A stretch of DNA of 62,928 bases from Verrucomicrobiia bacterium (GCA_035495615.1 DATJFP010000089.1:1-62928); one strand, 5' to 3'. Numbered from the stretch's first letter, positions 11,916 to 38,414 are shown. Numbers and translations: made by a program. Notes: a model not told the origin generated them from the letters alone.

Positions 11916-11944
11916 TTGCCCCGCCCGGGTTCCTCTGCTAGAAT
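11916..11944 (+). promoter_or_regulatory. sigma70-type promoter of gspG
   Basis: TTGCCC - 17 nt - TAGAAT. The -10 ends 11 nt before the ATG, so the mRNA is nearly leaderless and has no SD. Confidence 0.5.
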
Positions 11945-11955
11945 CCGGCCACTTT

Positions 11956-12363
11956 ATGAATCAAAAGGGATTTACGCTGATCGAACTGCTGGTGGTGGTC
12001 GTGATCCTCGGGATCCTGACCAGTCTCGCGCTCCCGCGCCTGGCCGGAAGGACCACCGAGGCCCGCATTAAAGCCGCGGACGCGGATGTGAACGGGAACG
12101 TCGCCCTTGCCCTCGACATGTACGAAGTGGACATGGGGAAATACCCGTCGGCCCTGCCGGATCTGGTCCAGAAGCCCTCCGGCGCGGACAATTGGAAAGG
12201 GCCTTACCTCAAGCGGGGATTGCCCAAAGATCCGTGGGGCAATGCGTACGTTTATACTTTTCCGGGCTCGGCCAATCCGGACGGCTACGATCTTTATTCC
12301 CTCGGCCCGGACAAAGCCGACGGCACCGGCGACGAAATTACCAACGCCCCGCGCGAAGCTTAA
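11956..12363 (+). CDS. gspG: type II secretion major pseudopilin GspG
   Basis: Prepilin leader MNQKG/FTLIELLVVVVILGIL and GspG signatures DMYEVDMGKYP...WKGPYL...DPWGNAYVY...GYDLYSLGPDKADG. Confidence 0.9.
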   Translation: MNQKGFTLIELLVVVVILGILTSLALPRLAGRTTEARIKAADADVNGNVALALDMYEVDMGKYPSALPDLVQKPSGADNWKGPYLKRGLPKDPWGNAYVYTFPGSANPDGYDLYSLGPDKADGTGDEITNAPREA

Positions 12364-12446
12364 CCTACATTCCTTTCATTCTCCGCTACTCCCGCCCGCA
12401 TTTGGACATGCGAAATAAAAACCCTGAAGATTTGTCATGAAAAGTC

Positions 12447-12475
12447 TTGTCACGCTGTGCGGGTTTTGGTACTAT
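12447..12475 (+). promoter_or_regulatory. sigma70-type promoter upstream of gspC-D
   Basis: TTGTCA - 17 nt - TACTAT. Confidence 0.45.
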
Positions 12476-12497
12476 GCCGAACGCCTAATTTTTTCGT

Positions 12498-13004
12498 TTG
12501 AAAGGAATCTCTCCTTTGGAAAGTCCTTCAAAGTCCCCGGTCCTGACCGAACCCCTCCCGTACGCAAGCTCTGCGCTGCTGTTCTTATCCGCGGCCGTGC
12601 TTTTACTTGCGGCGATTCAGCTAGGAGGTATTCCGTTCCGGCTGACCGCTCCGGAAAAGGGCGCGGCCGTCTTCGCGGCTCCGGTCGCGTCGCCGGAAAT
12701 CCCCCCGTTCGAGAACCTCTCGCGGGATTTTGAGACGCATTCCTTGTTTTATGTTCCCAAAGAAGTCGTGGCGGTCCAGGGGCCGGGCCTGAGTGAAATG
12801 ATAAAATCATTCCAACTCATTGGCATTGTTCAGGGTGAGAAACCCGAGGCCCTGATTAAAAACGTCACCACGCAGCAGACCTATTTCGCCCGGCAGGGAG
12901 AAAAGTTCGACCGGTTCACCGTGGCCGAGATCACGCAAGGCAGCATCAAGGTCGAATTCCAGGGCGAAAGCGCGGAACTGCTTTTAGAAGGGGGTAACTC
13001 GTGA
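12498..13004 (+). CDS. gspC: GspC/PilP-like inner-membrane secretin-interacting protein
   Basis: One TM helix followed by a C-terminal beta domain (FQLIGIVQGEKPEALIKN...YFARQGEKFDRFTVAEITQGSIKVEF) typical of the GspC HR / PilP fold. Its 3' end overlaps the secretin start (GTGA). The TTG start is uncertain. Confidence 0.6.
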   Translation: MKGISPLESPSKSPVLTEPLPYASSALLFLSAAVLLLAAIQLGGIPFRLTAPEKGAAVFAAPVASPEIPPFENLSRDFETHSLFYVPKEVVAVQGPGLSEMIKSFQLIGIVQGEKPEALIKNVTTQQTYFARQGEKFDRFTVAEITQGSIKVEFQGESAELLLEGGNS

Positions 13005-15136
13005 CCCGGTCCATCCGTTTTTGCGCCGCGCTCGTGTCCGTTCTCTTTCTCATTTCCTCGATTTCTCCCGCCGCGCGCGCCGATGACGATTCCAACGGCC
13101 CCGGAAACGTGCGGCAAAGCGAGACCCGCAATTCCATCAATTCGGCCATCATGGCCGCCGTGGGCCCGGACCGCCAGATGGATGAGCCGCGCATCACGCT
13201 CGAGCTGAAGGGCGTGGACATCCTGGACGTCCTCAAGATCATCAGCCAGCGTTCGGAGCTGAACATCGTGGCCGGCAAGAACGTGCGCGGCCTCGTCACG
13301 CTTTACCTGAAGAACGTGAAAGTGCGCGATGCGCTCGACACGATCGTCAATTCGCTGGAGCTTGCCTACGTCGAAGACAGCGGCATCATCAACGTGATGA
13401 CGTCCAAGGAATTCGAGGACGCCTACGGAAAATCGTTCGGCAAGGAATACACGACCAAGGCGATCCCGGTGCAGCACGCGTCTCCGGCCGCCGTGGGCCT
13501 GGTCGTCGAGAAATTGAAAAGCCCCAAGGGCAAGATGGTTTTTGACGAGAGGACGCACACCTTGATCCTGTCGGACCGTCAGGAAAATATCGCGGCCATG
13601 GAAAATGCCATGGCGCAGCTCGACAAGCCGCTCGCCACCGAAGTCTTCCAATTGAAGTTCGCGCGCGGCGACGAGCTCGAAGCTCAGCTTCGCGACTACC
13701 TGACGCCGCAGACCGGCATCCTCAAGGTCGACAAACGCACGAGCCAGATTACGGTTACGGACCGCGAAGAAAAGCTCGAGCAGGTCCGTGAAGTCATCAA
13801 GGCGCTCGACGTGCAGCCGCGCCAGGTGCTGATCCAGGCCCAGGTGATCGAAGTGGCGCTTTTCGACGCGTTCCGTTACGGCATCGACTGGGAATTCGTC
13901 CGGCAGAACGTCGCCAAGTTCAGCAACGTGGAACTGAAGCCGGCCTTTGACGTGGCCGTCCCCACCGCGGCGCTCGGCGCGGGCACGCTCAGCACGTTCA
14001 CCTTCGGCGGCCTCCAGGGGCTTTCGGTGGTGCTTTCGTTCCTCCAGAACGTGGGCAAGACCAACACCCTTTCTTCGCCGCGTATCACGGTCATTAATAA
14101 TGAAGAGGCAAAGCTCGTCGATGCCACGCGCCAGCCGTACGTTTCCCAGACCGTGGTGCAGGGGCAGACCACCTCGCAGACCGCGGACAACATCCAGTTC
14201 GTAGACGTGGGCGTGACGCTGACGGTCGTGCCTACCATCGCCGACCGCGAAAAAGTCGTGCTGAAACTCAAGCCCGAAGTGAGTTCGCAGACCGGGTCGC
14301 TCAGCGTGCAAAGCGTTTCCGAAGGCAGCGACACGCCGTTCACGCGTTCTCAGATCCCGATCGTGTCTTCACAGACGCTGGAAACCACCGTCGTCGTGAA
14401 AAGCGGCGAGACGCTCATCGTCGGCGGCCTGATCAAGGACAACGAAGCCAAGATCCGCCGCAAGCTCCCGGTCCTGTCCGACATCCCGTTCCTCGGCGCG
14501 GCCTTCCGCAGCGAGCAGGTGAGCTACCAGAAAACCGAGCTCGTCATTTTCCTCACCCCGTACATCGTCGACGGCGACGCGACCTCGAAAGAGCACTCGA
14601 AGTATTTCAACGAAGACGACCAGCTCATCAATTTCGACCTCGTGGGCGGCTACGATTTCGGCAAGGCGCTCAAGCACTCGCAGGGCGCTTTCCGCATCGA
14701 TCACGACCCGTACTGGAAAATGCGCTCGAACAAGATGCCGCAGTATTTCGCGCCGAAGGACTTGTACGAACGCGCGCTGCCTTATGAGAACAGCTTGAAC
14801 GAATTCAATTCCTATCAGGAAGGAAAGCCGCTGGTCGACCCCGACGCGGCGGGAAAGCGCTATGAGATCGAAGTCGCGCGCGAAACACAGGCGCGTCTGG
14901 CCGCCGCCGGCGTCGAAGGCCGCGTGGAAGTGGCCGTGAAAGTCGGCAAGGACGGAACCATTCGAGACATCTCCTGGGTCGACCCCGGCCCGGTGCGTGA
15001 AGCCGACCAGCGTCGGGTCCTGCGCGCCGTCCAGGACGGGGGACCTTTCGCAGCCTTTCCCGAAGGGCTCGCGTCCGAAGAAGAACTCCTGAGTTTGCGG
15101 CTTGCCGTGGATCGCGGCGACGCCCGCAAAAAATAG
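13001..15136 (+). CDS. gspD: secretin (GspD family) with ~186-aa C-terminal extension
   Basis: Signal peptide, an N0 domain (ITLELKGVDILDVLKIIS...), N1-type repeats and a secretin core (TNTLSSPRITVINNEEA...LPVLSDIPFLGAAFR...ELVIFLTPYIV). An extra tail ends in a TonB_C-like pattern. Confidence 0.9.
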   Translation: MTRSIRFCAALVSVLFLISSISPAARADDDSNGPGNVRQSETRNSINSAIMAAVGPDRQMDEPRITLELKGVDILDVLKIISQRSELNIVAGKNVRGLVTLYLKNVKVRDALDTIVNSLELAYVEDSGIINVMTSKEFEDAYGKSFGKEYTTKAIPVQHASPAAVGLVVEKLKSPKGKMVFDERTHTLILSDRQENIAAMENAMAQLDKPLATEVFQLKFARGDELEAQLRDYLTPQTGILKVDKRTSQITVTDREEKLEQVREVIKALDVQPRQVLIQAQVIEVALFDAFRYGIDWEFVRQNVAKFSNVELKPAFDVAVPTAALGAGTLSTFTFGGLQGLSVVLSFLQNVGKTNTLSSPRITVINNEEAKLVDATRQPYVSQTVVQGQTTSQTADNIQFVDVGVTLTVVPTIADREKVVLKLKPEVSSQTGSLSVQSVSEGSDTPFTRSQIPIVSSQTLETTVVVKSGETLIVGGLIKDNEAKIRRKLPVLSDIPFLGAAFRSEQVSYQKTELVIFLTPYIVDGDATSKEHSKYFNEDDQLINFDLVGGYDFGKALKHSQGAFRIDHDPYWKMRSNKMPQYFAPKDLYERALPYENSLNEFNSYQEGKPLVDPDAAGKRYEIEVARETQARLAAAGVEGRVEVAVKVGKDGTIRDISWVDPGPVREADQRRVLRAVQDGGPFAAFPEGLASEEELLSLRLAVDRGDARKK

Positions 15137-15203
15137 CCCAGAAATCATTGCAGAAAATCCGGGCCCGCTTTGCGCGCGGCCTTGAAAACGAAAGCAATTT
15201 TTA

Positions 15204-16355
15204 ATGGCGACATTCATCACCAATAAAAACGAGATCCGCGAAGAAGCGTCCAAGGCTTCCGTCACGCGTGTGGCCATGCCGTGGAAGGCGCCCGCACCGG
15301 CGCGCCGGGAAAAAACCTCGTCCCGCGTTCCGGACCAGGAGCTGGCCGACTTTTTCGAGCATCTGGCCACGCTGCTCGGCTCGGGCGTGACGCTTGTTTC
15401 CGCGCTGGATTTCATCGCAGGCTCCACGCGCCGGCCCGGCCTGAAGGCCGCGCTCACGCGAGTCAATGAAGCCCTGCGCGCGGGCGACGTTTTCTCGGAG
15501 GCCCTGACGCGCGAGACCGCGGTATTCGACCGCGCCGCAGCGGGCATGATCAAGGCGGGCGAGGCGGGCGGGACCCTCGAATCCGTGTGCTCGGAACTGG
15601 CCGCTTCTTACTCCCGGCGCGCCGAGGCCCGCAGCCAGTTTTTTCAGGCGCTGACCTATCCTGCCGTTGTCGCGTGCTTCGGCGTGCTCACCGTGCTTGT
15701 GCTGCTCCTTTTCGTGATCCCGAAGGTCGGCACGGTTTTCGAAGCCTGGGACACGCCGCTTCCTTTGATGACGCGGCTCCTTCTCGCCGCCAGCCGGTTC
15801 ATGCGCCACGGCGGATTTCTCGCGGTGCTGATTCCGTTCGCGGCGCTGCCGCTTCTGGCGCGGTTCAAGAAGCTCAGCCTCATGCCTTTTCTGATTTCGA
15901 TCGCGCAAAAAACGCCTTTCCTGAAAGACCTTTTCTCCCTCGGCGATTTCGTGCGCCTTATGCGCACCTGGGGCATGCTGCTCCGAAGCGGCGTGCCCAT
16001 CCTGGAAGCGATCCGTTCGTCCCGCGACGTGGTCGCGAGCGATTCCCTGCGCGCGTCGCTTGCCGCGGTCTCGGAAAAAATCCTGCGCGGCGAACGGCTG
16101 CAGGAGGCCCTGCAGCACGAAGACTGGCTGCCGGACCTGGCCAAGCATTTCCTGCGCGTGGGCGAGGAGACCGGAACGCTGGACGGCGCTTTCGACAAGA
16201 TCGCGCGTTTCTATGAACGCCAGCTCGCGGCCAAACTCAAAATCGTTTCCACGCTGGTGGAGCCGGCGCTCATCCTGCTCGTGGGCGTGAGTGTGGGTGT
16301 CCTCGTCATCAGCATGCTGCTTCCGATTTTTGAGATGAGCCTGGCGGTGAAATAA
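15204..16355 (+). CDS. gspF: type II secretion platform protein GspF
   Basis: Duplicated T2SSF domains (ELADFFEHLATLLGSGVTLVSAL; FVRLMRTWGMLLRSGVPILEAI), 3 TM helices and the C-terminal motif LLPIFEM. Confidence 0.9.
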   Translation: MATFITNKNEIREEASKASVTRVAMPWKAPAPARREKTSSRVPDQELADFFEHLATLLGSGVTLVSALDFIAGSTRRPGLKAALTRVNEALRAGDVFSEALTRETAVFDRAAAGMIKAGEAGGTLESVCSELAASYSRRAEARSQFFQALTYPAVVACFGVLTVLVLLLFVIPKVGTVFEAWDTPLPLMTRLLLAASRFMRHGGFLAVLIPFAALPLLARFKKLSLMPFLISIAQKTPFLKDLFSLGDFVRLMRTWGMLLRSGVPILEAIRSSRDVVASDSLRASLAAVSEKILRGERLQEALQHEDWLPDLAKHFLRVGEETGTLDGAFDKIARFYERQLAAKLKIVSTLVEPALILLVGVSVGVLVISMLLPIFEMSLAVK

Positions 16356-17141
16356 ATGAAGGCGCTTCCTTTTTTTCTCGCGGCCCTGTTTGCCTGTCCC
16401 GCGGCCTGGGCGCAGGCCCCCTGGCAGGAGATCAAGAGCGACCACTTCATTGTGTATTCGGCGACGGGCGAGCGCACGTTCATGGACCAGGTCGCGGCAA
16501 AGTCCGAGCTTTATTACGACGCCATCGCCAACTGGCTGGGTTACGCGCGCCGCGACGGTTTCTGGACCTGGGACGGCCGCTGCAAGATTTACGTGTACGG
16601 CTCGCGCGAGCATTACCTCGGCGAAACGGGGCAGGCCGCCTGGTCGAACGGCGCCGCGGTGCTGGAACGCCGCATGATTTTGTCGTTCCAGGAAGCTCCG
16701 GGCTTCCTGGATTCGGTGCTGCCGCATGAGCTGGCGCATCTCATCTTCCGAGATTTCGTGGGGGGGAAGGGGCGCATCCCGCTGTGGCTGGACGAAGGCG
16801 TGGCCATGGCGCAGGAAAAAGACAAACGGAAAGAATTCGACGTCTGGATCGCGAAGATGATCGCGGAAAAGAAATGGATTCCGATGGAGACGTTCATGAA
16901 GGTCGGCAATCTGCAGGAGACCCCGGGCGATGAGGCCGTGATGTTTTACGCGCAGGCGCAAAGCGTGGTACGGTTTCTCCTGGAAGGTTACGGCTCGGAG
17001 CGGTTCGCGGGGTTTTGCCGAAGCCTCCGGGACGGGGACACGCCGCAGGACGCGCTCGCGAAAAATTACCCGCAGGATTTTCCCACGCTCCAGGCGTTCG
17101 AGGGCAAGTGGGCGGCTTCGGCCGTGCCGGCAGCCGCATGA
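16356..17141 (+). CDS. secreted MA-clan zinc metallopeptidase-like protein
   Basis: Signal peptide MKALPFFLAALFACPAAWA, an HELAH zinc motif followed by WLDEGVA (third-ligand Glu). It starts directly after the gspF stop and overlaps gspH by 4 nt. Confidence 0.65.
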   Translation: MKALPFFLAALFACPAAWAQAPWQEIKSDHFIVYSATGERTFMDQVAAKSELYYDAIANWLGYARRDGFWTWDGRCKIYVYGSREHYLGETGQAAWSNGAAVLERRMILSFQEAPGFLDSVLPHELAHLIFRDFVGGKGRIPLWLDEGVAMAQEKDKRKEFDVWIAKMIAEKKWIPMETFMKVGNLQETPGDEAVMFYAQAQSVVRFLLEGYGSERFAGFCRSLRDGDTPQDALAKNYPQDFPTLQAFEGKWAASAVPAAA

Positions 17142-17602
17142 AAAATTCGAGCCGGGGCTTCACGCTTGTCGAGATCCTGATCGTGTTCGCGCTCGTGGCG
17201 ACATTCGCGGCGCTCGCGGTCGCGGGCTTTTCCCGTTTTTACAATGAGCGCCTTCCGCGCCTGTATGTCAAAGACCTGGCCGGCTACGTGCGCTACCTGC
17301 AGTTCAAGGCGATCGAAGACGGCAAGATTTACCGCATGACCGTGGACAATGACACCGGCGTGAGCACGGCCTCCAAGCCGAATGCGAAAAAAGATTTCGA
17401 GCCGCTGCGCGACGCGCTGTCCCGGCGGTTCCAGAAAAAAGGGGAATTCGCGGTCGTGCTCGGCGAGGGACATGAAGTTTATTTTTTTCCGGACGGCACC
17501 GTGACGCGTAACGCCGTCACCGTGTCACGGAACGGCGGCGAAATCGCGACGCTCCAGATCAAGAACCGCCTTGGCGCTTTGGAGATTCATTATGCTTCGT
17601 GA
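17138..17602 (+). CDS. gspH: minor pseudopilin, GspH-like
   Basis: Prepilin motif SRG/FTLVEILIV. ATGA overlap with the previous gene. Confidence 0.7.
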   Translation: MKNSSRGFTLVEILIVFALVATFAALAVAGFSRFYNERLPRLYVKDLAGYVRYLQFKAIEDGKIYRMTVDNDTGVSTASKPNAKKDFEPLRDALSRRFQKKGEFAVVLGEGHEVYFFPDGTVTRNAVTVSRNGGEIATLQIKNRLGALEIHYAS

Positions 17603-18011
17603 CGCGCGCGGCAGCATTTTGTTCGAGACCTTCGTGGCGCTCATGGTGCTTTCGGTGGGCGTGACCGGCTCGCTCCGGCTTTTCGGCCAGGCGCTCCAGG
17701 CCAGCGACCGCAACCGGCAGCAGGCCGAATCCAAACAGTTCCTGGACGAGCTGCTGTTCTCGGTGTTCGCGGGTATCGACGAGGGCGTGGTTCCCGAGCA
17801 CGGCGAAGAGAAGGCGACGGACCTCGGCGAAGACGGCCTGAAGGCCCGCGTCCGGCTGGTTCCGCTCGGTGTCGAGAAAACGAAAGCGCAGGAAGTGCCC
17901 AAAGGCGGCCACGGCGAATACGGACGCCTGGTCATGAACGTCGAAAACGGGTCGGGCCAGAAAGTTTTCCAGGCCGAGACGGTCATCCGCCAGCAGAGCG
18001 CGGCGAAATGA
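17592..18011 (+). CDS. gspI: minor pseudopilin, GspI-like
   Basis: ARG/SILFETFVALMVL with Glu at +5. SD ggag. Position matches the H-I-J-K order. Confidence 0.6.
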   Translation: MLRDARGSILFETFVALMVLSVGVTGSLRLFGQALQASDRNRQQAESKQFLDELLFSVFAGIDEGVVPEHGEEKATDLGEDGLKARVRLVPLGVEKTKAQEVPKGGHGEYGRLVMNVENGSGQKVFQAETVIRQQSAAK

Positions 18012-18601
18012 AAAATCAAAAAGGGTTCACACTCATCGAAGTCCTGATCGCCATGGTCATCGTGGCGGTGATCCTGGCAGGCCTTGTCGCGAGTTTTCAG
18101 ACCGGCCTGGCCGCGTTCAAGCGCTCGGAAGATTACCTGGCGGCGGGGCGCGAACGGGAAGTCTTTTACCTTCAGCTCGAGCAGGAACTGCGCAACGCCG
18201 TGCCGGTTTCGCTTTATCCGTTCCTGGGGCGGCCGGACCGGATTTCCTTTCCGGCGCGGCTGCGGCGCTACACGCCGAAAGGCCCGGAAGAAGGCCTTTA
18301 CCTGATCGAATACCAGTTCCGGAATGGGCAGCTCATGCGGCGGGAAACGCCGCTGAAAAAAGAAGGCCTGAGAGAAACGGAAGCCGCGGCCGAGACGCTG
18401 TTCGAAGGGCTGCGTGAAGGGCGCTTTTCTTTTTTGACGCTCGCCGAAAGCGGGCCGGCGCGGTGGAACGGCGCCTGGGGCGGGGATATTTATCCCGGGC
18501 TTCCGCGCGGCGTGCAGGTGGAACTTTCCGGCGGTTCGTTCGGCGGACGGGGCGGGCACAAGACCCTCCTGCCGCAGGGAGTGTTGGGAATCCAGACATG
18601 A
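18008..18601 (+). CDS. gspJ: minor pseudopilin, GspJ-like
   Basis: QKG/FTLIEVLIAMVIV. ATGA overlaps at both ends. Confidence 0.7.
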   Translation: MKNQKGFTLIEVLIAMVIVAVILAGLVASFQTGLAAFKRSEDYLAAGREREVFYLQLEQELRNAVPVSLYPFLGRPDRISFPARLRRYTPKGPEEGLYLIEYQFRNGQLMRRETPLKKEGLRETEAAAETLFEGLREGRFSFLTLAESGPARWNGAWGGDIYPGLPRGVQVELSGGSFGGRGGHKTLLPQGVLGIQT

Positions 18602-19626
18602 AAAATAACAGAGGCAGCGTTTTGATCGTCTTTTTGTGGGTGATGGCTGTCCTCGGCGTTTTCGCTGTGAGCGTGGCGACGCGCGCGCGCCTGGCCGCGA
18701 AAATCGAGGGCACGGAGAACAACCGTTTCCAGCGTTCCTGCGATTATCTCGCCGCCGTGAATCTGGCGCGCCAATTCATCGAAGCCGACGAAGAGCCCGA
18801 AGTGGATTTTGCCCGGGATTCCTGGTACGGCGTGCCCCAGGGATTCGCAAAGATGGATTTCGGCGGGCGTTTCAGGCTGACGATCACGGACGAAGAAAGC
18901 AAGCTGGACATCAACAGCGCGCCCGCGGAAGTCCTGCGGAAGTTTTTCGATCTGCTCCGCGCCAAAGGCGAGAAACTCGTCACGCCTTCCGCGGACCTGG
19001 CCGCGGCCATTGCCGCGTGGCGCGGCACGGGCCTGGGCGGCTTCGGCCGGTCCACCTCAGGCTTCAAGCACAAGGGCGCGGCTTTCGAAAGCCTCGAGGA
19101 GCTTTATCTGATCCAGTACATCACGCCCGGAGACGTTGAAATCCTCCGGCCTTATCTCACGGTTTACGGGCCGGGCACGGCCGGACCCTTCCGCGTCAAC
19201 CTGAACACCGCGCATCCGCTCATCCTGGAAGCAATTATCGCGACCCACAACTCGGGCGATTTCAGCAAGAAGATGCTGCTGCAGAAAATCCTCGAATTCC
19301 GTTCCGCCAAAACCACGGTGCAGGGGAATTCGTTCCCGCAGGTTTTCCGCAGCGAAGACCTGGAAGCCTCCGCGCTGATTACGAGACTGCGCCTCACGCC
19401 GTCGGTCGACATGCTCGCCCTGGCCGGGGCTTTCGTCCAATCCGCGACCGTGGATTCCCATTTTTTTGACGTAAGCGTTTTGTCCACGCTGCCGGGCACG
19501 GAGTCCTATGAAATGGAAGCGGTGCTCGGCCCGCGTTCCCGCAGCGCGCTGTCGGGCCTTGTTCCGCTCGATATCCTTTCCTGGCACGAAGGCCTTCTCG
19601 TCCTGCCGGCGGGGAGGGCGTCGTGA
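18598..19626 (+). CDS. gspK: minor pseudopilin GspK-like
   Basis: NRGSVLIVFLWVMAVLGV lacks Glu+5, as GspK does. LDINSAP...VLRKF and RVNLNTAHPLILEAI helix-hairpin-helix motifs are present. Confidence 0.75.
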   Translation: MKNNRGSVLIVFLWVMAVLGVFAVSVATRARLAAKIEGTENNRFQRSCDYLAAVNLARQFIEADEEPEVDFARDSWYGVPQGFAKMDFGGRFRLTITDEESKLDINSAPAEVLRKFFDLLRAKGEKLVTPSADLAAAIAAWRGTGLGGFGRSTSGFKHKGAAFESLEELYLIQYITPGDVEILRPYLTVYGPGTAGPFRVNLNTAHPLILEAIIATHNSGDFSKKMLLQKILEFRSAKTTVQGNSFPQVFRSEDLEASALITRLRLTPSVDMLALAGAFVQSATVDSHFFDVSVLSTLPGTESYEMEAVLGPRSRSALSGLVPLDILSWHEGLLVLPAGRAS

Positions 19627-21535: not shown

Positions 21536-21575
21536 CAAGGTAACCGTCAGGATGGACGGGGACATGGCGTGGATA

Positions 21576-21599
21576 GGGACAGGTCTTTAGACCTGTCCC
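21576..21599. repeat. 24-nt perfect palindrome GGGACAGGTCTTTAGACCTGTCCC (copy 1)
   Basis: 10-bp stem with a 4-nt loop. An identical copy lies at 51969-51992. This copy is in the gspM-gspE spacer. Confidence 0.9.
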
Positions 21600-21664
21600 A
21601 AAGGCGTGATGCATGAGGCCGGTTGCATTCATGTAAACCTTTGAACGTTTGAAGGGATGAAATA

Positions 21665-23359
21665 ATGTTAAAGAAAATAAAAGAATTCAGACTGGGTGAG
21701 GCGCTGGTGGAAAAGGGCTGGGTATCCGGCGCTGCTCTGGAAGACGCGCTCGAGAGCCAGAAAAAAACAGGCGAGCTCCTGGGCCAGGTCCTGCTCCGCG
21801 AGGGAGGACTCCCGGAAACGCGGCTGCTCGAGATGCTGGCCGAGCAATGGGGCCTGCAATGCGTGGACCCCGCGCTTTACGACGTGCCGCGCGCGGTGCT
21901 GGAAAAGGTGCCGGCCAAATTCGTCCATCACTACGGTGTTTTCCCGCTGGAATTTTCGGGCGGCGTCCTGCACCTGGCCGCGAGCAGTCTCGCGCATTTC
22001 GAATCCGTGCAGGAGCTCGGCGCGATCCTGGGCGCGGAAATCAAAGTCTCGTTCGCCGAGCAGGCGAAGATCGCGGAAGCCATCGAGAAAAATTATGGCA
22101 TCGGCGCGTCGGTCGTGGAAAAACTCGTGGCCGGCAAGAGAACCGAGACTGCGGCGGGGCGCCTTGAATCCGATAAGGTCGAGGCCGTCGACACGGCGAG
22201 CGGCGAAGGCTCGGTCCGTGAGCTGGTGAACATGCTGCTGCTCGACGCGAAACAAAAACGAGCGAGCGACATCCACCTCGAGCCTTTCCAGGGCGAGCTG
22301 GTGCTGCGCTACCGCATCGACGGCGTGCTGCAGGAAACGAGCGTGCCGGAAGCGATCCGTCAGTTCCACGGCGGCATCATCACGCGCATCAAGATCATGG
22401 CGCAGCTGGACATCGCGGAACGCCGCGTGCCGCAGGACGGCCGCATCAAGATCCGCGCGGGGAACGAAGAACTCGATCTTAGAATTTCGCTTCTGCCCAC
22501 CGCGTTCGGCGAGGCGCTTGTCATCCGCATTCTTTCCCCGGCCCGTCTGCTGAATCTGGGCGGCATCGGCCTCGGCGCCGCGCACCTCGGAGCCATGCGC
22601 GAATTGATCGACCGGCCGCACGGCATCATCCTTTTGAGCGGCCCCACGGGAAGCGGCAAGACGACCACGCTCTACGCGGCGCTCAGCGAAATCAATACCG
22701 AAGTACGCAAGATCATCACCGTGGAAGACCCGGTCGAATACCAGCTCCGCGGCATCATCCAGATGCAGGTGCATCCCAAGATCGGCCTCACGTTCGCGAG
22801 CGGCCTGCGGCACATGCTGCGCCACGACCCGGACGTCATGATGATCGGCGAAATCCGCGACGCGGAAACCGCGGAGATCGCGGTGCGTTCCGCGCTGACC
22901 GGCCATCTTGTTTTCTCCACGCTCCACACCAATGACGCGCCCGGAGCGGTGGCGCGCCTGACCGATCTCGGCGTGGGCCCGTACCTGGTTTCGTCCAGCC
23001 TGAACGCGGTCATTGCGCAGCGCCTCGTGCGTGTCCTGTGCCCGTTCTGCCGGGAAAAAATCCCGGCTTCCGAGATCCGCCTTCCCGAAGGCGCGCGTGA
23101 GGAATTCAAGCAGGGGCCGTTTTACGAAGGCCGCGGCTGCGATTCCTGCCGCGGCACGGGCTACATGGGCCGCAGCGGCATCCATGAGCTGATGCTCGTC
23201 GACGATGAAGTCCGCGACCTGATGGTCCAGAAAATTCCGGCTTCGGAATTGCGGCGGCAGCTCGTCCGCAAGGGCATGAAGACGCTGCTGGAAGACGGCC
23301 TCGAAAAAGCGCGGCAGGGGACCACGTCGCTGCGCGAAGTCCTGCGCGTTGTCCGATAA
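21665..23359 (+). CDS. gspE: type II secretion ATPase GspE with N-terminal MshEN-type domain
   Basis: Walker A GPTGSGKTT, Asp/His boxes, Walker B (DPDVMMIGEIRD) and a tetracysteine CPFC...CDSC. The N-terminus carries a tandem RLGxxLVxxG...L...L..Q motif. Confidence 0.92.
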   Translation: MLKKIKEFRLGEALVEKGWVSGAALEDALESQKKTGELLGQVLLREGGLPETRLLEMLAEQWGLQCVDPALYDVPRAVLEKVPAKFVHHYGVFPLEFSGGVLHLAASSLAHFESVQELGAILGAEIKVSFAEQAKIAEAIEKNYGIGASVVEKLVAGKRTETAAGRLESDKVEAVDTASGEGSVRELVNMLLLDAKQKRASDIHLEPFQGELVLRYRIDGVLQETSVPEAIRQFHGGIITRIKIMAQLDIAERRVPQDGRIKIRAGNEELDLRISLLPTAFGEALVIRILSPARLLNLGGIGLGAAHLGAMRELIDRPHGIILLSGPTGSGKTTTLYAALSEINTEVRKIITVEDPVEYQLRGIIQMQVHPKIGLTFASGLRHMLRHDPDVMMIGEIRDAETAEIAVRSALTGHLVFSTLHTNDAPGAVARLTDLGVGPYLVSSSLNAVIAQRLVRVLCPFCREKIPASEIRLPEGAREEFKQGPFYEGRGCDSCRGTGYMGRSGIHELMLVDDEVRDLMVQKIPASELRRQLVRKGMKTLLEDGLEKARQGTTSLREVLRVVR

Positions 23360-23383
23360 ACCTTACATAAATGACAGCGGAAT

Positions 23384-23416
23384 GCGTGTGTTCAAAAAAA
23401 TCGACACGCCTTTTTG
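23384..23416 (+). terminator. intrinsic terminator-like hairpin after gspE
   Basis: Stem gcgtgt (23384-89) pairs with acacgc (23404-09), followed by cTTTTT. The loop is long and A-rich. Confidence 0.45.
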
Positions 23417-23557
23417 TGCGCCGCACGATGCGTAAATTTTTATGAAAAGCTGATTTTTCCAGTCCCGCGGCGACGGGTCTTATGATAAAATTTTGCGACT
23501 CTCTGCCATCCACTCAGCCTGAGTCGGATTTACAAATTCCTTTTCCCGGAGTTCTTC

Positions 23558-24220
23558 ATGTTCGCTTCAAAACGTCTTACTCATGCCGTTCTGACCGGAA
23601 TGGCGCTCTGGCTTTTTTCGAGCGCGCACGCTTCCGCCGCCGTTCTTGATTTCGAAGGTCTGGCCGATTTCACTCCCGTGACGAATCAGTACGCGGGGCT
23701 CGGCGTCACGTTTCAAAACGCGACGGCCGGTGTCATTCCTCCCGACGGCACGCTGAACGAAATCGATTTTCCGCCGACTTCCGGCACCACGCTCATCACG
23801 AACGAAATCGACTTGGACAACGACGGGTTTCCGGACGTCACCGGCCCCATGACGATTACCTTCACGCCGTATCCGTATCTCAACGTCGGAGGTTACTTCA
23901 CGTACGCGGACTTCGGCCAATCCGGCGATCCGTTGACGCTTTCGGCTTTCGGCCCCGGCGATCCTCTGAATCCGCTGGCCACGCTCACGCTTTTCGAAAA
24001 CCTGGGAAGCCCGCAGCTCCTGTCTTTTTCCGGGATTGGCCCGATTTCGTCGCTTCTCGCGTCGGGCGGCCAGGGCAGCAACTTTACGCTCGATAATTTT
24101 ACGTTCACCGGGCGCTTCGCCCCAGGCGGTTCGCTGGTTCCGGAACCTTCGTCCCTGATTTTTTTGACTCTTGGATTGGCGGCTCTGGGCATGGGCTCAA
24201 GGCTTAAAAGCAATCGTTAA
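23558..24220 (+). CDS. PEP-CTERM-anchored secreted protein
   Basis: Signal peptide, then the C-terminal sorting signal VPEPSSLIFLTLGLAALGMGSRLKSNR (PEP motif, TM helix, basic tail). Confidence 0.85.
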   Translation: MFASKRLTHAVLTGMALWLFSSAHASAAVLDFEGLADFTPVTNQYAGLGVTFQNATAGVIPPDGTLNEIDFPPTSGTTLITNEIDLDNDGFPDVTGPMTITFTPYPYLNVGGYFTYADFGQSGDPLTLSAFGPGDPLNPLATLTLFENLGSPQLLSFSGIGPISSLLASGGQGSNFTLDNFTFTGRFAPGGSLVPEPSSLIFLTLGLAALGMGSRLKSNR

Positions 24221-24242
24221 CCCGTAAACGACCGAGATCCTT

Positions 24243-33500: not shown

Positions 33501-36500
33501 CCAATATCACTTCGCAGGCCACGTTCTCTTCCAATAATACCGCGGTCGCCACCGTGAACGCCGACGGCCGCGTCGCGGACATCGCCAACGGAAATGCCCT
33601 GATCACGGCGACAGTCGGCACGAAGACCGCGCAGGTCAATGTGACCGTCAACATCGTGACGCTCACCGGCGTTTCCATCGATCCCACGAGCTTCACGCTT
33701 TTCGGCCTGAACAAGACGCGGCAGCTCAGCGTGATCGGCTCTTATTCCAACGGCAGCACGGCGCCGATTCCCGCGGGCAGCGTGGCTTTTGGTTCGACCA
33801 ACATTGCCGTGGCCGCGGTGAACGCGAGCGGCCTTGTCACTTCCATCAGCACGGGCAATGCCGTGATCAGCGCGTCCGTCGCGGGTTTTGCGCCGGCGCA
33901 GACTTCGGTCACGGTCGCTCCGATCGCGCCCACGGGCATCAGCGTGTCGCCGAACGCGATTCTCTTCACCTCGAAAGACGAGACGCGCCAGCTGGACATC
34001 ACCGTGAATTTCAACGACGGCACGACCGGTTCGCCGCAGAGCGCGGTTGACTACGATTCCGACCACACGGACGTGGCCACGGTCGATGCGAACGGTCTTG
34101 TGACCGCGGTCGCGAATGGCGATGCCACGATCACGGTGCAGCATCAGGGCTTTACCGCGGACGTGACGATCTCGGTCGACATCCCCGACGCCACCACGCC
34201 GCCGCCGGAGATCACGCAGCTTGACCGCGCGAAAGCCGGCGAAGGGGACATCTTCACGATCTTCGGTAAAAATTTCGCGGCCGTGCCCGGCGACAACCTC
34301 GTGCGCGTCAACGGCATCCAAGCCGTGGTCCAGTCCGCGCGCCAGGACGAGCTCGCCGTTGTCGTGCCCGCGGGCGCGACGAGCGGTCCCGTGAACGTCG
34401 AAGTGAACGGCAAAGTCAGCAATGACGCCGCGCTGGTCATCTATGGCAGGCTCGCCAAGAGCTTCCTCATCACGCCGGCGGTCGACGTGGCCGCTTCCGC
34501 GGGCGCGAAACTGCTTTTGTCCGGCCCGACGATCGACTTCCGCGCGGGGGACAAGGTTTACCTTTCGAGTGCGCCCGACGTGCTCGCGCCGCTCAGTTAC
34601 ACCGGCCAGCTGCGCGCACGCGTGGACGGCGGCGCTTTCTCCAACATTGGAGCTTCGGGCCAGGTCATCGAATTGACCTCGCTGCTCACCGCGGGCAGCC
34701 GGACGGTCGACCTCGATCTCGGCGAATCCGCGGGCAGGCACAAGACCGCGGCCATTTATCTCGTGGCCGGCCCGAACAATACGGGCGTGATCTCGGGCTT
34801 CCGCAGCATCATGGCCAACGGACAGAGCCGCTCGCAGGCCGTCACGATCCTGAATCTGACCGACCTCGCGGGCAATCCTTATCCGAACGGTTCCAAAGTC
34901 GCGGTGACCGTGGAAGCGCACTGCTTCCGCGACCGCAGCACCAGCGGCTGCATCGCTTCGCACGGCGGCTCGATCACGAACGGCGAGGGGAATTCGCCGG
35001 ACGGATTCGGCCTACGGGTCTTTACCGTGCAGAACCGCCGCATCGACGTGGTCTATGATCCGGGCAGCTCGGCGCCGCTGAACGCCTGGAGCCTGGACAT
35101 CTCGAACATTCAGGTTCTTCCGGCCAATTCGAACGGCAGCCGGACCTCCGACACGGCGCTGGCCTACACGCCGGTCACGCTGACTTCCTTTGAATCCGTG
35201 GGCACGACGCGCAGCCAGACCTCCGTCGTCGCCGACGGCCTGGAAAAAATCTTGACTGTCACGTTCACGGGCGCGCGCGACACCGCGGGCCAGCCCGTTC
35301 CCGACGGCACGCCTTTTGTCGTGACCGTGGAGCCGCATTGCTTCCGCGATGCGAGCAACAGCAGCTGCATCGGTTCCGCGGGCGGAAGCCTATTGAGCGG
35401 CGATGCTTCGCCGGACGGTTTCGGACTGCGCAGGCACGTCCTTGCCGGCGGGGAGGCCGAAGTCCAGTACAGCCCGGGAGGCACGACGCTTCCTTATCCC
35501 AACACGGCCATCGCGAACCTGCAGTTCCTGCCGTCGCGTCCCAACGGTTCGCGCATCGGCGACTATGCGTTCCAGTTCACGCCGGTCACGCTTTCGTCCG
35601 CCCAGTCGCCCACGGTCAGCTCCGCATCGTCGGTGTATGCGGACACGGGAGACAACCGCGTGATCGTCACGCTCAGCGATTTCAAGGACTCGCTCGGGAA
35701 TCCGGTGCCGGATGGAACGAAAGTCGTCGTGACGGCAGAAGCGCACTGCTTCCGCAACGCCTCGGACAATTCCTGCATCGGTTCGGCCGGCGGTGTCATC
35801 ATCAGCGGCACGAATTCTCCCGACGGCTTCGGCCTCAAGGTCCATGACATCCAGAACGGACAGACCCAGGTGACGTACAGCGCGCTGGGCGTGGGCATGC
35901 AGACGCTCAACTCCGGCACGGTGAACGTGCAGGTGCTGCCGTCGAGACCCAACGGCAGCCGCATCGGCGATTACGCGATCGTTGCCGTTCCTTTCGCGGC
36001 CGCGGGAGTGCAGGCGGCGATCTCTTCCGCGAATCCCACGGCGGTCGTGGCCGACGGCAGTTCCAAGAGCGTGACCATCACCCTGACCAACATTCGCGAC
36101 ACTTCCGGTAACGTTCTGCCCGATGGCGCCCAGGTGGTCCTCACCGCCGAAGGCCATTGCTTCCGCAATCCTTCCGACAACAGCTGCATTGACTCGCGCG
36201 GCGGTTTGATCACGACCGGGACGGCGTCACCCGACGGGTTCGGACTCAAGGTCCACGTCGTGTCCGGCGGTCAGATCACGGCCACGTACGATCCGTCTTC
36301 TGTCGCGCTGGAATTTCCGGACGTCCAGACCGCGCGGATTCAGGTGCTGCCGGCCAAGCCCAATGGCGGCCGCCTCGGCGATTATGCGTTTGCCGTCGTG
36401 CCTGTGGCCTTGTCTTCGATTCAGCAGGCGCAGGTTTCCGTGGTTCCGCCCTCGGTCTTCGCGGACAATAGCGCGAATCTTTCGGTGATCACGCTCAGCA

Positions 36501-37222
36501 ATATCAAGGATGCCGCGGGCAACAATGTCCCGAACGGCTCGAAGGTCGTGGCGACTGCGGGAGCATTTTGTTTCCGCAATCCCACGGACAATACATGCGT
36601 CGATTCCCGCGGCGGCGCCATTACGACTGGTACCGCTTCGCCGGATGGTTTCGACTTGAAAGCGCATACGGTCCAAAGCGGCAGCACGCAGATTACCTAT
36701 TCGGCCGCGCCCATCGCGCTCGAAGCGCGCGAGGCCGCGCTGGCCAACGTCCAGATTTTGCCCTCGCAGCCCAATGGCAGCCGCATCGGCAACAGGGCTT
36801 TCACGCTGGCGCCTGTGACGCTGGCGGGGTATCAATCCGCGGACGTTACGGGACCCGGCCAGGTCACGCCGGGCGGCACCGCGAGTTATGTTGTCTCCAA
36901 CATCCGCGACACTTCCGGCAATCTCGTACCCGACGGCGCGAAGGTTCTGGTGACGGCCTCCGCCGTCTGCTTCCGCGACCCGGAGACCAATAATTGCATC
37001 GGTTCCGCGGGCGGCGGGGTGACCAACGGCACGGCTTCTCCGGACGGGTTCGACCTCAAGGCCTTCGCCATCCAGGGAGGCCAATTCACGGTGCAGTTCC
37101 AGGCTCCGGCGGGCACGGGAGTTTCCGTATTGCAGCTCTTGCCCGGCAAGCCCGGCAACCAGCGCACCGGCAATAAGGCCTTCACCCTCAAATCGATTTC
37201 CGTGCAAAATGCGGGCGGGTAA
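30527..37222 (+). CDS. giant (2231-aa) Ig-repeat surface protein
   Basis: ATG overlaps the previous stop (TGATG). Signal peptide (AAAPAFA/AQ). Domains recognised: CARDB-like, SbsA_Ig-like, several bacterial Ig domains, four Big_2 domains (about 33.40-34.18 kb), an IPT/TIG domain and six C-terminal ~137-aa Cys-pair repeats. Confidence 0.85.
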   Translation: MRTRLFHKKFAALLGAWLFLAAAPAFAAQITLTGDAQKGPLTTGDDGKFTLVNVPLRSNSVNRFKVTAKDGSQEQSQEVLITQISLQSVVVSKIKSTPLTVQQIEQLVNDGVIDIDDPSNFNVSVFQIVLTIGGREVGIDVPMVRGLQEDMGEEDVAPKSDPGDGRSNPNPPEVVVFEVEPPPIPGQPPAPPIPGVLIIEGRIKTLKEFYSVRLLLMNTSGIFTLHDVTANIEFPDGGLSSTLPQDGIVQFGDILPGDGETPGQKEREFIIRGDEIGVRGVKVNFGGTIIGGGIPDDVIIPFNGSADTTVEVKGPPEFRVQVIHPPAVVQDVPYELIVDIQNVGDTPALYTSFELDVGADGNLVDCTYDEALGNPVCLPIVGSAVRNIGHLMPGESTRQSFMINPHVTGPITSCIAVADQNIDLQVHVGNQGCIVGQRSIAKSPDGIPTMSVLPAANALGVGIDAPVVAIFNEKMNESTINLSTIQVLDDQGAAVPGNLRIVPLGDHTAAIFQVLDGITNRWKGNTTYTIQISDNIFDLQGNKLVSPWTSEFTTTDPTNDITPPTVTLSIEPPVNPSQVLPGQIIRLNAYASDQGTHVARVELRMQDTDDAVPAYELIDQKTVFPEQSGPIIFSVDSANLTPGHIYQFKATAFDNVGNSQNATIAAVIAQNAAAPTVQLPNDPAAPVLYGISLTLVPENLTGGVKQVDYYLDAASTPFATLTVAPYSVTVDTLGKTLGAHTIRAVATDGLGQTGQDVFGFQLAANPNEPIVDFGGAIDGQQYVVGKPLSVNGSAADPTGIQGVAFFLDNTAGTPVALSTEPFDLDTTGLSLGNHKLIFKATNKAGVSNDLNDPDSVLEFKVVAEPPPGPPPAAPQVTNITFPVNGQVTLTGTSVANARIDISNLTQGTQESIFADGAGAFQIALAAQSGDQIRLIAFNLSQSLTGSNPTNVVVPAAPVLDHITVSPSSRTFTAVNDSQEITVTGFYVGGAQANITSQATFSSNNTAVATVNADGRVADIANGNALITATVGTKTAQVNVTVNIVTLTGVSIDPTSFTLFGLNKTRQLSVIGSYSNGSTAPIPAGSVAFGSTNIAVAAVNASGLVTSISTGNAVISASVAGFAPAQTSVTVAPIAPTGISVSPNAILFTSKDETRQLDITVNFNDGTTGSPQSAVDYDSDHTDVATVDANGLVTAVANGDATITVQHQGFTADVTISVDIPDATTPPPEITQLDRAKAGEGDIFTIFGKNFAAVPGDNLVRVNGIQAVVQSARQDELAVVVPAGATSGPVNVEVNGKVSNDAALVIYGRLAKSFLITPAVDVAASAGAKLLLSGPTIDFRAGDKVYLSSAPDVLAPLSYTGQLRARVDGGAFSNIGASGQVIELTSLLTAGSRTVDLDLGESAGRHKTAAIYLVAGPNNTGVISGFRSIMANGQSRSQAVTILNLTDLAGNPYPNGSKVAVTVEAHCFRDRSTSGCIASHGGSITNGEGNSPDGFGLRVFTVQNRRIDVVYDPGSSAPLNAWSLDISNIQVLPANSNGSRTSDTALAYTPVTLTSFESVGTTRSQTSVVADGLEKILTVTFTGARDTAGQPVPDGTPFVVTVEPHCFRDASNSSCIGSAGGSLLSGDASPDGFGLRRHVLAGGEAEVQYSPGGTTLPYPNTAIANLQFLPSRPNGSRIGDYAFQFTPVTLSSAQSPTVSSASSVYADTGDNRVIVTLSDFKDSLGNPVPDGTKVVVTAEAHCFRNASDNSCIGSAGGVIISGTNSPDGFGLKVHDIQNGQTQVTYSALGVGMQTLNSGTVNVQVLPSRPNGSRIGDYAIVAVPFAAAGVQAAISSANPTAVVADGSSKSVTITLTNIRDTSGNVLPDGAQVVLTAEGHCFRNPSDNSCIDSRGGLITTGTASPDGFGLKVHVVSGGQITATYDPSSVALEFPDVQTARIQVLPAKPNGGRLGDYAFAVVPVALSSIQQAQVSVVPPSVFADNSANLSVITLSNIKDAAGNNVPNGSKVVATAGAFCFRNPTDNTCVDSRGGAITTGTASPDGFDLKAHTVQSGSTQITYSAAPIALEAREAALANVQILPSQPNGSRIGNRAFTLAPVTLAGYQSADVTGPGQVTPGGTASYVVSNIRDTSGNLVPDGAKVLVTASAVCFRDPETNNCIGSAGGGVTNGTASPDGFDLKAFAIQGGQFTVQFQAPAGTGVSVLQLLPGKPGNQRTGNKAFTLKSISVQNAGG
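34820..37222 (+). repeat. six tandem in-frame ~400-417-nt repeats inside the giant gene
   Basis: The first Cys codon of motif (H)CFR(D/N)xxxxxC recurs at 34922, 35339, 35747, 36158, 36569 and 36968. Each unit also contains SPDGFGL(K/R) and (I/L)Q(V/I/F)LP(S/A)xPNGSR(I/L)G(D/N)(Y/R)AF. Confidence 0.9.
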
Positions 37223-37229
37223 AACTAAC

Positions 37230-38414
37230 ATGAACAGAAAAACTTTTCTCTTCAGCTTGGGACTGGTGCTCGCAGCGGCCGCGCCGCTTGCCTATGCTGA
37301 TACAGCGGTGGTCTCGGACGCGCAGGTAATCGATCTTGGCCAGAATAATTTCCTGCTCAAGCTGCGTTCCAGCGGGCCGCAGGCCTTTGACGCCACGCTG
37401 AAAAATCCGACGACCCTCGAAGTCCGGCTTTATCAGGCCACGCTGGGAACCTTCGCGGTTCCTTCGACGCCTTTCGGCGGCGTGACCTTTACGCAGGACA
37501 AAGCCGAGCAAGTGCTGATGCGCCTCACGCTGAATGACCCGACCCACAAGCCCCGCGTCCAGCAGGGCGACAGCGCGGACTCGGTGGACATTTACGTTCG
37601 CTGGATGACGGACAACAAAGCGCCAGTGCTCAGCGCCGTCAACGTCACGAACATCACCCAGACGGGCGCGGACATCACGTGGACGACCGACGAAGCCGCG
37701 GATTCCAGCGCGGCCTACGGGCTTTCCCAGCCTCCGGCGCAAACGACCACCGTCAACACGACGCCGTTTACCGCGCATAAAGTCACGCTGACGGGGCTCG
37801 CGCCCGGCAAGCTTTATTATTACAGCGCGCGCTCGGCCGACATCGCGGGAAATCTCGCGGCTTCGAACGTTCTTTCTTTCACGACCAAGGCGCCGGCCTT
37901 CGCGGAATCCGGCGGCCAGGTGGTCATCGAAGCCGAGCATTACGACGTGAAGACACCGCGCGCCGGAAAAGACTGGGTGCTGGAAAGCGCGCAGTCCGGA
38001 GCTTCCGGAAGCAGGTACGCGACCGCGCTGCCCAACAGCGGCGCGAATCTTTCTTCCTACGTGAATCAGAGCCCGGAGCTGGTCTACAACGTGCTTTTCA
38101 CGGCGACCGGCACTTATTACGTCTGGATCCGCGGCGCGGGCCCGACGACAGCCGACGATTCCGTTCATGCAGGCATCGACGGCACCGGACCGGCATCCGC
38201 GTCCAACATGGACGGTTTTCCCGCGGCCTGGACGTGGAAGAATAAAACCACGAGCGGCGCCGCGGCCACGCTCGTCGTGCATTCGCCGGGCCTTCACACG
38301 ATCCACCTCTGGATGCGCGAAGACGGTTTCCGCGCCGACAAAATCCTGCTCCGCCAGAACAGTTCCGCCACCGCGCCGTCAGGCACGGGTCCCGCCGAAA
38401 GCCCCCGCCAGTAA
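37230..38414 (+). CDS. secreted FN3 plus CBM/lectin-like domain protein
   Basis: Signal peptide, an FN3-like unit (VTNITQTGADITWTTDEAADSSAAYG...YYYSARSADIAGN), then a beta-sandwich-like C-terminal domain (VVIEAEHYD...WMREDGFRADKILL). It starts 8 nt after the giant gene's stop. Confidence 0.65.
   Translation: MNRKTFLFSLGLVLAAAAPLAYADTAVVSDAQVIDLGQNNFLLKLRSSGPQAFDATLKNPTTLEVRLYQATLGTFAVPSTPFGGVTFTQDKAEQVLMRLTLNDPTHKPRVQQGDSADSVDIYVRWMTDNKAPVLSAVNVTNITQTGADITWTTDEAADSSAAYGLSQPPAQTTTVNTTPFTAHKVTLTGLAPGKLYYYSARSADIAGNLAASNVLSFTTKAPAFAESGGQVVIEAEHYDVKTPRAGKDWVLESAQSGASGSRYATALPNSGANLSSYVNQSPELVYNVLFTATGTYYVWIRGAGPTTADDSVHAGIDGTGPASASNMDGFPAAWTWKNKTTSGAAATLVVHSPGLHTIHLWMREDGFRADKILLRQNSSATAPSGTGPAESPRQ

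Follow-up and report, generated by a model that had tools for sequence, protein, structure and literature searches.

Genes of substrates classically adjoin operons for type II secretion systems (T2SS), as in Klebsiella (Pul and PulA), E. coli (T2SS-beta and SslE) and Pseudomonas (Hxc and LapA). Here, a DNA stretch of 62,928 nucleotides from a Verrucomicrobiia bacterium (GCA_035495615.1 DATJFP010000089.1:1-62928; its full length is called the window) was analyzed, in which a T2SS operon ending in gspE is followed by a module of four genes for a small PEP-CTERM protein, two proteins of more than 2,000 amino acids (aa), named giant1 and giant2, and a 394-aa FN3/CBM-like protein. The locus shares with classical T2SS operons the secretin, the ATPase, the platform, putative GspC, GspL and GspM, five pseudopilins and adjoining genes of Sec-dependent exported proteins. 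It differs from them in the order G-C-D-F-x-H-I-J-K-L-M-E with gspG first and gspE last, in a putative GspC with an HR-like domain only, in an MA-clan peptidase after gspF and in a GspE with a predicted cyclic di-GMP (c-di-GMP)-binding N-terminus. Moreover, the cluster contains no gspO, gspN or pilotin gene, and what is taken as its cargo is encoded by a module of four genes, two of them for proteins of >2,000 aa.

In Candidatus Omnitrophota, loci resembling T2SS or type IV pili (T4P) lie upstream of giant genes (West-Roberts et al. 2023, bioRxiv 10.1101/2023.11.21.568195; 2026 preprint 10.64898/2026.06.07.730766). The giants described there are longer than 30,000 aa, with many transmembrane (TM) segments and often a SecA-DEAD domain, and the loci contain rcpC/Tad-type parts (10.1101/2023.11.21.568195). 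The window resembles them in having large predicted adhesion proteins directly 3' of a locus containing gspD, gspE and gspF. Unlike them, it encodes two proteins of 2.1–2.2 thousand aa with a signal peptide alone and a Gsp set of canonical kind, and a PEP-CTERM gene leads the module; neither paper mentions PEP-CTERM (10.1101/2023.11.21.568195, 10.64898/2026.06.07.730766). The arrangement is similar, but the family, which is marked by giant genes of >20–30 kb with many TM segments, is not the same.

T2SS-dependent surface display is known for proteins with GlyGly-CTERM processed by rhombosortase (VesB of Vibrio) and with MYXO-CTERM processed by myxosortase (TraA of Myxococcus) (PMC3237569, PMC11980579). 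An earlier annotation of the window from its sequence (the original prediction) had called a link between T2SS and PEP-CTERM unusual, which overstates the case, as T2SS export is established for these two tags. Common to them and to the window are a tripartite tag (motif, TM helix, basic tail), Sec export and a proposed processing at the inner membrane followed by T2SS. The window differs in that the tag is PEP-CTERM and present only on the small first protein, not on the giants, that the link to T2SS is genomic adjacency alone and that no sortase gene was found among the scanned ORFs of the window.

PEP-CTERM genes form mostly single-gene operons (Haft et al. 2006, PMC1569441), and their organization behind sigma-54 promoters is known (PMC1569441; Aquincola pepA, PMC9850573). 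By which route substrates of the PEP-CTERM/exosortase system pass the outer membrane has been a standing question ever since the 2006 definition of the system. As in these systems, a protein with signal peptide and PEP-CTERM is encoded after a long intergenic region, with a sigma-54-type promoter in six relatives. Unlike in them, the PEP-CTERM gene heads a tight operon with two giants, the window copy lacks the sigma-54 motif, and no exosortase, PrsK/R or exopolysaccharide (EPS) locus was identified nearby.

Results and Discussion

The module follows gspE of two T2SS operons

The module was found directly after gspE, in the same orientation and behind a spacer of 198–315 nt, in the window and in two further lineages (L091/L098 and L094/L100; L numbers denote loci of relatives). 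The operon of L091 and L094 has the order C-D-F-G-x-J-K-L-M-E without the peptidase gene, and its GspE, with 470 aa, lacks the N-terminal c-di-GMP motifs. Identity of the PEP-CTERM protein was 58% between window and L091, 55% between window and L094 and 53% between L091 and L094. In the same order of comparison, giant2 showed 64%, 68% and 63%, and the 394-aa protein 50%, 48% and 50%. All three lineages are thus equally far apart in their module proteins but not in those of the T2SS. GspE was 50% and 53% identical between the window and L091 or L094, respectively, and 73% identical between the latter two; for GspM the values were 21%, 25% and 46%, and GspF of the window and of L094 shared 29%. 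The L094-type GspE is 51–54% identical to all members of the T2SS type of the window. Since the module proteins are equidistant and the T2SS proteins are not, a single module, as judged by these identities, stands behind gspE in two T2SS operons that are non-orthologous.

Such a pattern would require either independent juxtaposition or a linkage kept through replacement of the T2SS. A recombination breakpoint inside gspE, considered as an explanation of the T2SS swap, was rejected, as the identity profile showed none. The 3' flanks of the module differ as well, with egtB/egtD in the window and a miaB-like radical-SAM gene in L004, L006/L094, L010 and L100. No argument for a functional tie is stronger than the recurrence behind two T2SS operons, which was seen in three lineages only. 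Our preferred reading, with a probability of about 0.5, is that a general T2SS has a cargo slot after gspE and would carry the module proteins across the outer membrane. The evidence from relatives for such an export appears moderate and not conclusive.

Occurrence of the module and its promoters

Since GspL yielded too few, relatives of the module were traced with three other anchors: the 394-aa protein, giant1 and the N-terminal region of giant2. Upstream neighbors were read from giant1 orthologues, and a metagenome scan with the giant2 N-terminus added 36 loci, which were analyzed by tblastn and open reading frame (ORF) calling. The module, or a core of the PEP-CTERM gene and the two giants, occurs in about 20 other lineages. 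The giant1–giant2 pair was nearly universal in the analyzed loci, and wherever a full-length orthologue of the 394-aa protein occurs, those of giant2 and giant1 precede it. Only the N-terminal domain of the 394-aa protein is left as the fourth gene in L095. Directly 5' of giant1, at least 13 loci encode a small signal-peptide protein with an end of the type ...VPEP(S/G/A)T-hydrophobic-basic, the body of which diverges to 18–25% identity among loci. As its first gene, the PEP-CTERM gene is integral to the module and widely conserved. Distant modules also encode an exported Calx-beta/propeller-like protein of about 450–560 aa between the giants or just 5' of giant2 (L108 8352-9704, L114 2574-3986, L115 8442-9854, L124 164-1510 and L127 521-2209).

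Several observations weigh against export by the T2SS. First, a T2SS lies directly upstream of the module only in the window, L091/L098 and L094/L100, and this adjacency is limited to three lineages of one clade. At 12 or more of the more distant module loci (L092, L097, L107, L110/111, L112, L117, L118, L123, L125, L128, L130 and L134), no T2SS gene was found within the 1–10 kb upstream; the genes there are unrelated and include Fur/KatG, a two-component system and genes on the opposite strand. Second, in two loci with the T2SS type of the window (L012 and L014), gspE is followed by the gene of phosphoenolpyruvate carboxykinase (PEPCK). Third, with 220–230 kDa, the giants are very large for T2SS substrates, and neither an exosortase nor GspO was found among the scanned ORFs of the window. 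Fourth, a −24/−12 sigma-54-type motif (GGCAC-N5-TTGC or near variants) precedes the PEP-CTERM gene in six lineages (L091/L098, L094/L100, L095, L097, L134 and L107). It sits 47–160 nt 5' of the start codon (L091 2544, L094 9216, L095 350, L097 3597, L134 2427 and L107 1193), and the relaxed pattern has a background rate of 0.045 per kb. By this motif, the module would be transcribed as a unit of its own in those relatives.

These data speak for an account in which both blocks are neighbors only. An autonomous module with its own promoter would then reach the surface by the exosortase pathway plus another outer-membrane route, or by any T2SS of the genome, and its position after gspE in one clade would reflect shared ancestry and local rearrangement rather than function. 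The sigma-54 promoters before the module are typical of PEP-CTERM genes (PMC1569441, PMC9850573), the T2SS type of the window occurs without the module in four loci, and the spacer sequence is not significantly conserved: homology between the window spacer and those of relatives was not above shuffles, and only L094 and L100 were alike. The module nevertheless stands behind gspE of two non-orthologous operons with different 3' flanks, landing by chance right after an operon of about 12 kb twice is improbable, and the cargo carries no other recognizable outer-membrane export signal. The account of mere neighbors is therefore taken as a serious possibility at less than even odds, and export of the module proteins by the adjacent T2SS is kept as the preferred reading.

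The T2SS type without the module, and the junction of both blocks

A word search of 5.8e9 proteins for the GspL-like protein gave only three proteins, with two homologues on other contigs. Both contigs (L001 and L002) keep the order F-peptidase-H-I-J-K-L-M-E and end inside gspE. A GspE scan of species-representative genomes gave four best loci (L011–L014) with 56–60% identity, all with the order C-D-F-peptidase-H-I-J-K-L-(M)-E. Two of them are named Omnitrophica metagenome-assembled genomes (MAGs), and the closest named genomes with the operon are Candidatus Omnitrophota. To judge by these relatives, the window probably stems from Candidatus Omnitrophota or a nearby group. The giant module was absent from all four. 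In L013, gspE is followed by the gene of an exported S8/FG-GAP protease, and in L011 by that of an exported EF-hand protein, which suggests that the slot after gspE often holds an exported protein. Since L011–L014 carry the T2SS without the module, the T2SS of the window is read as a general-purpose machine not dedicated to the giants.

The original prediction had proposed the region as a candidate dedicated secretion/adhesion island. In its strong form, this reading would mean a T2SS that exists to build or export the giants and is inherited and regulated with them as one unit. The tight packing and co-orientation on which it built are real: six 4-nt overlaps in the T2SS operon (13001, 17138, 18008, 18598, 19623 and 21032) read GTGA or ATGA, and in the module a gap of 22 nt between the PEP-CTERM gene and giant1, a TGATG overlap of giant1 and giant2 (30525-30529) and a gap of 7 nt before the 394-aa gene were found exactly as predicted, as was the length of 198 nt for the spacer between the blocks. 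However, to call the blocks physically fused was too strong, given this AT-rich spacer.

The spacer contains a weak hairpin with a T-run (23384-23418) and an extended −10-like sequence (TGATAAAAT, 23483-23491). A strong terminator or sigma-70 promoter was rejected, as there were weak consensus matches alone and fewer terminator-like sites than in shuffles. A riboswitch or other structured RNA was rejected as well: the RNA fold z-score of −0.69 was not significant, and Rfam gave only a tRNA-Pro in the window. A sigma-54 −24/−12 motif was not matched in the spacer with up to two mismatches allowed. The window copy of the module lost, or never had, a promoter of this type, which makes read-through from gspE possible; sequence alone leaves both read-through and an own promoter as options for this copy. 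The internal gaps of the T2SS operon (129–134 nt) are not much below the length of the spacer. These features, together with the lack of a strong terminator, would suit a dedicated island.

Comparative synteny decided the matter differently. Four MAGs have this T2SS architecture with the embedded peptidase but no module; in the closest relatives of the module, another T2SS is linked to it, and in distant ones none is. As adjacency, co-occurrence across relatives held in L091/L098 and L094/L100, with non-orthologous T2SS, and failed at 12 or more loci within the 1–10 kb upstream. Since the T2SS occurs without the module and the module with another T2SS or none, the two blocks are not co-inherited. 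A dedicated island is improbable and, on these genomic comparisons, appears largely refuted. Instead, the region is made of two units end to end, the T2SS (11956-23359) and a portable four-gene surface-protein module (23558-38414).

Genes of the T2SS operon

Protein identities were assigned by Pfam and NCBIfam profile searches (Table 1). The ORF map and translations gave 12 co-oriented genes in the order G-C-D-F-peptidase-H-I-J-K-L-M-E, and for these and the module genes the positions, order and orientation of the original prediction were confirmed.

Table 1. Features of the T2SS operon, the spacer, the module and the gene preceding gspG in the window.
Feature	Position	Strand	Basis or remarks
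Large TPR-repeat protein, ~950 aa, start uncertain	9040..11904	+	TPR_14/15/19; ends 51 nt 5' of gspG
gspG, major pseudopilin	11956..12363	+	TIGR01710 123 bits (cut-off 88.85), T2SSG and N_methyl
Minimal gspC-like protein (probable), 168 aa	12498..13004	+	TM helix and HR-like domain, no PDZ
gspD, secretin	13001..15136	+	Secretin 149 bits, Secretin_N x2, weak N0
gspF, inner-membrane platform	15204..16355	+	T2SSF x2, 185 bits
Exported HExxH metallopeptidase (Peptidase_MA_2)	16356..17141	+	Pfam 55 bits, HELAH motif, signal peptide
gspH, minor pseudopilin	17138..17602	+	N_methyl; weak XpsH/GspH matches
gspI-like minor pseudopilin	17592..18011	+	G↓SILFE motif; weak PilV/ComGE matches
gspJ, minor pseudopilin	18008..18601	+	N_methyl and T2SSJ 28.4 bits
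gspK, minor pseudopilin	18598..19626	+	NF037980 T2SS_GspK E = 6e-22, below cut-off; no Glu5
gspL-like assembly protein, 470 aa	19623..21035	+	Cytoplasmic domain, TM helix, PilN-like domain (residues 387-462)
gspM-like bitopic protein, 167 aa	21032..21535	+	Position and topology alone
gspE, ATPase	21665..23359	+	T2SSE 434 bits; TIGR02533 571 bits (best match, cut-off 630)
Spacer between gspE and the PEP-CTERM gene, 198 nt	23360..23557	+	AT-rich (45% GC); no sigma-54 motif
Small exported PEP-CTERM protein, 220 aa, first gene of the module	23558..24220	+	PF07589 23.9 bits (cut-off 20.7)
giant1, 2094 aa	24243..30527	+	Signal peptide; He_PIG, Big_9, cadherin-like immunoglobulin (Ig) domains, CarboxypepD_reg, EF-hand-type Ca sites
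giant2, 2231 aa	30527..37222	+	Signal peptide; conserved N-terminus; Big_5, Big_7, Big_6, Big_2 x3, TIG
394-aa exported protein	37230..38414	+	Module-specific N-terminal domain, FN3, GH115_C-like beta-sandwich

The secretin scored 242 bits against TIGR02517, under the equivalog cut-off of 351, and its C-terminal extension (residues 632-689) gave a weak match resembling the TonB C-terminus (24.9 bits, cut-off 27.1). The labels C, L and M were assigned by position and weak similarity, with the PilN domain for GspL and position alone for GspM, the L091 orthologue of which has a weak T2SSM_b match. The 168-aa GspC-like protein had no match in Pfam. A profile of this protein and three orthologues had as its sole match the HR domain of GspC (3OSS_C; weak, E = 0.0012), and orthologues precede gspD in L011, L013 and L014; it is probably a minimal GspC. 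Prepilin N-termini of the G↓F/SxxxE type were present in five operon proteins. GspK lacks Glu5, as GspK proteins do. The gspI ORF opens at TTG 17571, and ATG 17592, from which a prepilin N-terminus is obtained, is the more likely start.

No prepilin peptidase (GspO/PilD, Peptidase_A24) was found among the scanned ORFs of the window, in agreement with the original prediction, and it is possibly encoded elsewhere; gspN and a pilotin gene were absent from the cluster. Apart from the prepilin peptidase, and with GspC, GspL and GspM as putative members, 11956-23359 is a complete T2SS, and the earlier view of a T2SS upstream of the module was borne out by the Pfam and NCBIfam identities and the prepilin motifs.

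Some scores would also suit a cluster building a pseudopilus or type IV-pilus-like fiber that displays or scaffolds the giants and does not secrete them. GspE reached 531 bits against PilB, near the 571 bits against GspE, GspD scored similarly for PilQ and GspD, and the MshEN type of c-di-GMP domain is one typically seen in MSHA pilus ATPases. Yet GspG exceeds the equivalog cut-off, the tip set GspH-I-J-K is complete with a GspK lacking Glu5, the HR domain of GspC was matched, albeit weakly (E = 0.0012), and the cluster has neither a PilT-type retraction ATPase nor a PilMNOP set. A fiber of this kind is thus very unlikely, and a secreting T2SS remains the preferred reading of the cluster.

The N-terminus of GspE (residues 1-145, window 21665-22100) carries tandem 24-residue MshEN motifs predicted to bind c-di-GMP, and NF053729 scored 54.9 bits, over the cut-off of 38. 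The ATPase of this T2SS type may be gated by c-di-GMP. A 7TM-PAS histidine kinase gene followed by a gene for a response-regulator GGDEF cyclase was observed at 58355-62586 of the window, and a GGDEF gene lies just 3' of the module in L004 and L006.

The Peptidase_MA_2 gene lies directly after gspF in the window, L001, L002, L011–L014, L017 and L019; this holds in L017 although the order there differs (E-F-peptidase-G). A search for relatives in the PDB found none, and a literature search gave no paper on it. The embedded peptidase might process cargo or pseudopilins.

Module proteins and proposed export route

All four module proteins carry Sec-type signal peptides, which confirmed that the genes downstream of gspE code for exported proteins. 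The PEP-CTERM protein ends in ...VPEPSSLIFLTLGLAALGMGSRLKSNR, with the tag VPEPSS...RLKSNR made of PEP motif, TM helix and basic tail. Pfam and NCBIfam searches (E ≤ 0.01) found no RTX or type I secretion (T1SS) signal, no type V (T5SS) beta-barrel and no type IX (T9SS) Por_Secre_tail in the module proteins, and searches of the same databases gave no C-terminal anchor on either giant.

The C-terminal region of giant1 is conserved. It was modeled with AlphaFold2 (AF2) as a six-bladed beta-propeller with a beta-sandwich (pLDDT 75, pTM 0.78), and Foldseek returned NHL/SGL propellers. As a functional clue, this fold was discarded, since it is a generic six-bladed propeller and not diagnostic. The N-terminal 450 aa of giant2 (30527-31876) had no Pfam match and are 56–78% identical across very divergent loci, far above the conservation of the Ig repeats. 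The domain is rare: among 1.84e9 proteins, it has 83 cluster representatives (E ≤ 1e-30), and the full-length matches are nearly all proteins of 2,000–3,900 aa. This region probably forms the module's functional core. Its single-sequence AF2 model was unusable (pLDDT 36.6), and the C-terminal ~900 aa of giant2 remained unannotated by domain searches. A teneurin-like giant2 (PDB 9ifo, 9pt5) was also rejected: the match of E = 1.6e-52 covers the tandem Big_2 repeats alone (giant2 residues 950-1228, chain residues 5-365), and no RHS or YD domains were matched in Pfam.

For the preferred reading, the following route is proposed. First, the four module proteins would reach the periplasm via Sec, to judge by their signal peptides. 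Second, they would cross the outer membrane through the neighboring T2SS; this route is proposed because no T1SS, T5SS or T9SS export signals were found on them. The position after gspE would be a cargo slot and not part of a dedicated machine. Third, the C-terminal helix would hold the PEP-CTERM protein in the inner membrane until an exosortase encoded elsewhere cleaves it, and the protein would end up linked to the surface or to EPS, by analogy with T2SS cargo carrying GlyGly-CTERM or MYXO-CTERM. No exosortase (EpsH/Xrt) was found among the ORFs scanned in the 63-kb window, but a second PEP-CTERM gene in it (268 aa, 47971-48777, + strand, PF07589 28 bits) implies that the genome has an exosortase system. 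Fourth, and speculatively, the PEP-CTERM protein may tether the Ca-binding Ig-like giants and the FN3/CBM-like protein in an adhesive layer or fiber. That the exosortase-processed PEP-CTERM protein as anchor, the giants and the FN3/CBM-like protein form one surface adhesion structure, all exported by the T2SS, is possible but less likely than not.

The module of a PEP-CTERM gene and two giants, its recurrence behind two T2SS operons and the T2SS subtype with MA peptidase and MshEN-GspE appear to be new, as literature searches gave no description of the two-giant module, the two-operon recurrence or the subtype. The module behind gspE of two T2SS operons is a testable genomic hint at the T2SS as a route for PEP-CTERM cargo. 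Were the adhesion structure exported by the T2SS as outlined above, the region would be the first to give genomic access to the way that PEP-CTERM/exosortase cargo takes out of the periplasm. The rule that pairs a C-terminal sorting tag with T2SS, known for GlyGly-CTERM and MYXO-CTERM, would then extend to PEP-CTERM, and a rare family of giant surface proteins would be newly defined. A rare, apparently undescribed module of three or four genes for very large surface proteins is defined here from diverse uncultivated bacteria. The pairing of T2SS-like loci with giants in Omnitrophota is extended to smaller, Sec-dependent proteins, and attention is drawn to a T2SS subtype in which a metallopeptidase is embedded and the ATPase is predicted to sense c-di-GMP.

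Flanking genes

The TPR-repeat protein encoded 5' of gspG is possibly associated with the T2SS operon. Its identification as PrsT was rejected, with 37.9 bits against a cut-off of 312. It is the last of the genes co-oriented toward gspG at 5272-11904 (+ strand), which encode an MBOAT O-acyltransferase, a 349-aa protein, a DUF1189 protein and the TPR protein, and which may be polysaccharide-modification or accessory genes. On the other side, an egtB-like (DinB_2 and FGE-sulfatase) and egtD-like (Methyltransf_33) pair for ergothioneine synthesis lies at 38505-40760 (+ strand); it is unrelated to the module and marks its 3' boundary. Further downstream, a little-studied bacterial archaeo-eukaryotic release-factor-like protein of baeRF family 10 is encoded at 50245-51495 (+ strand), and a protein of 612 aa that looks exported and has a Big_7 Ig-like domain is encoded at 52075-53913 (− strand).

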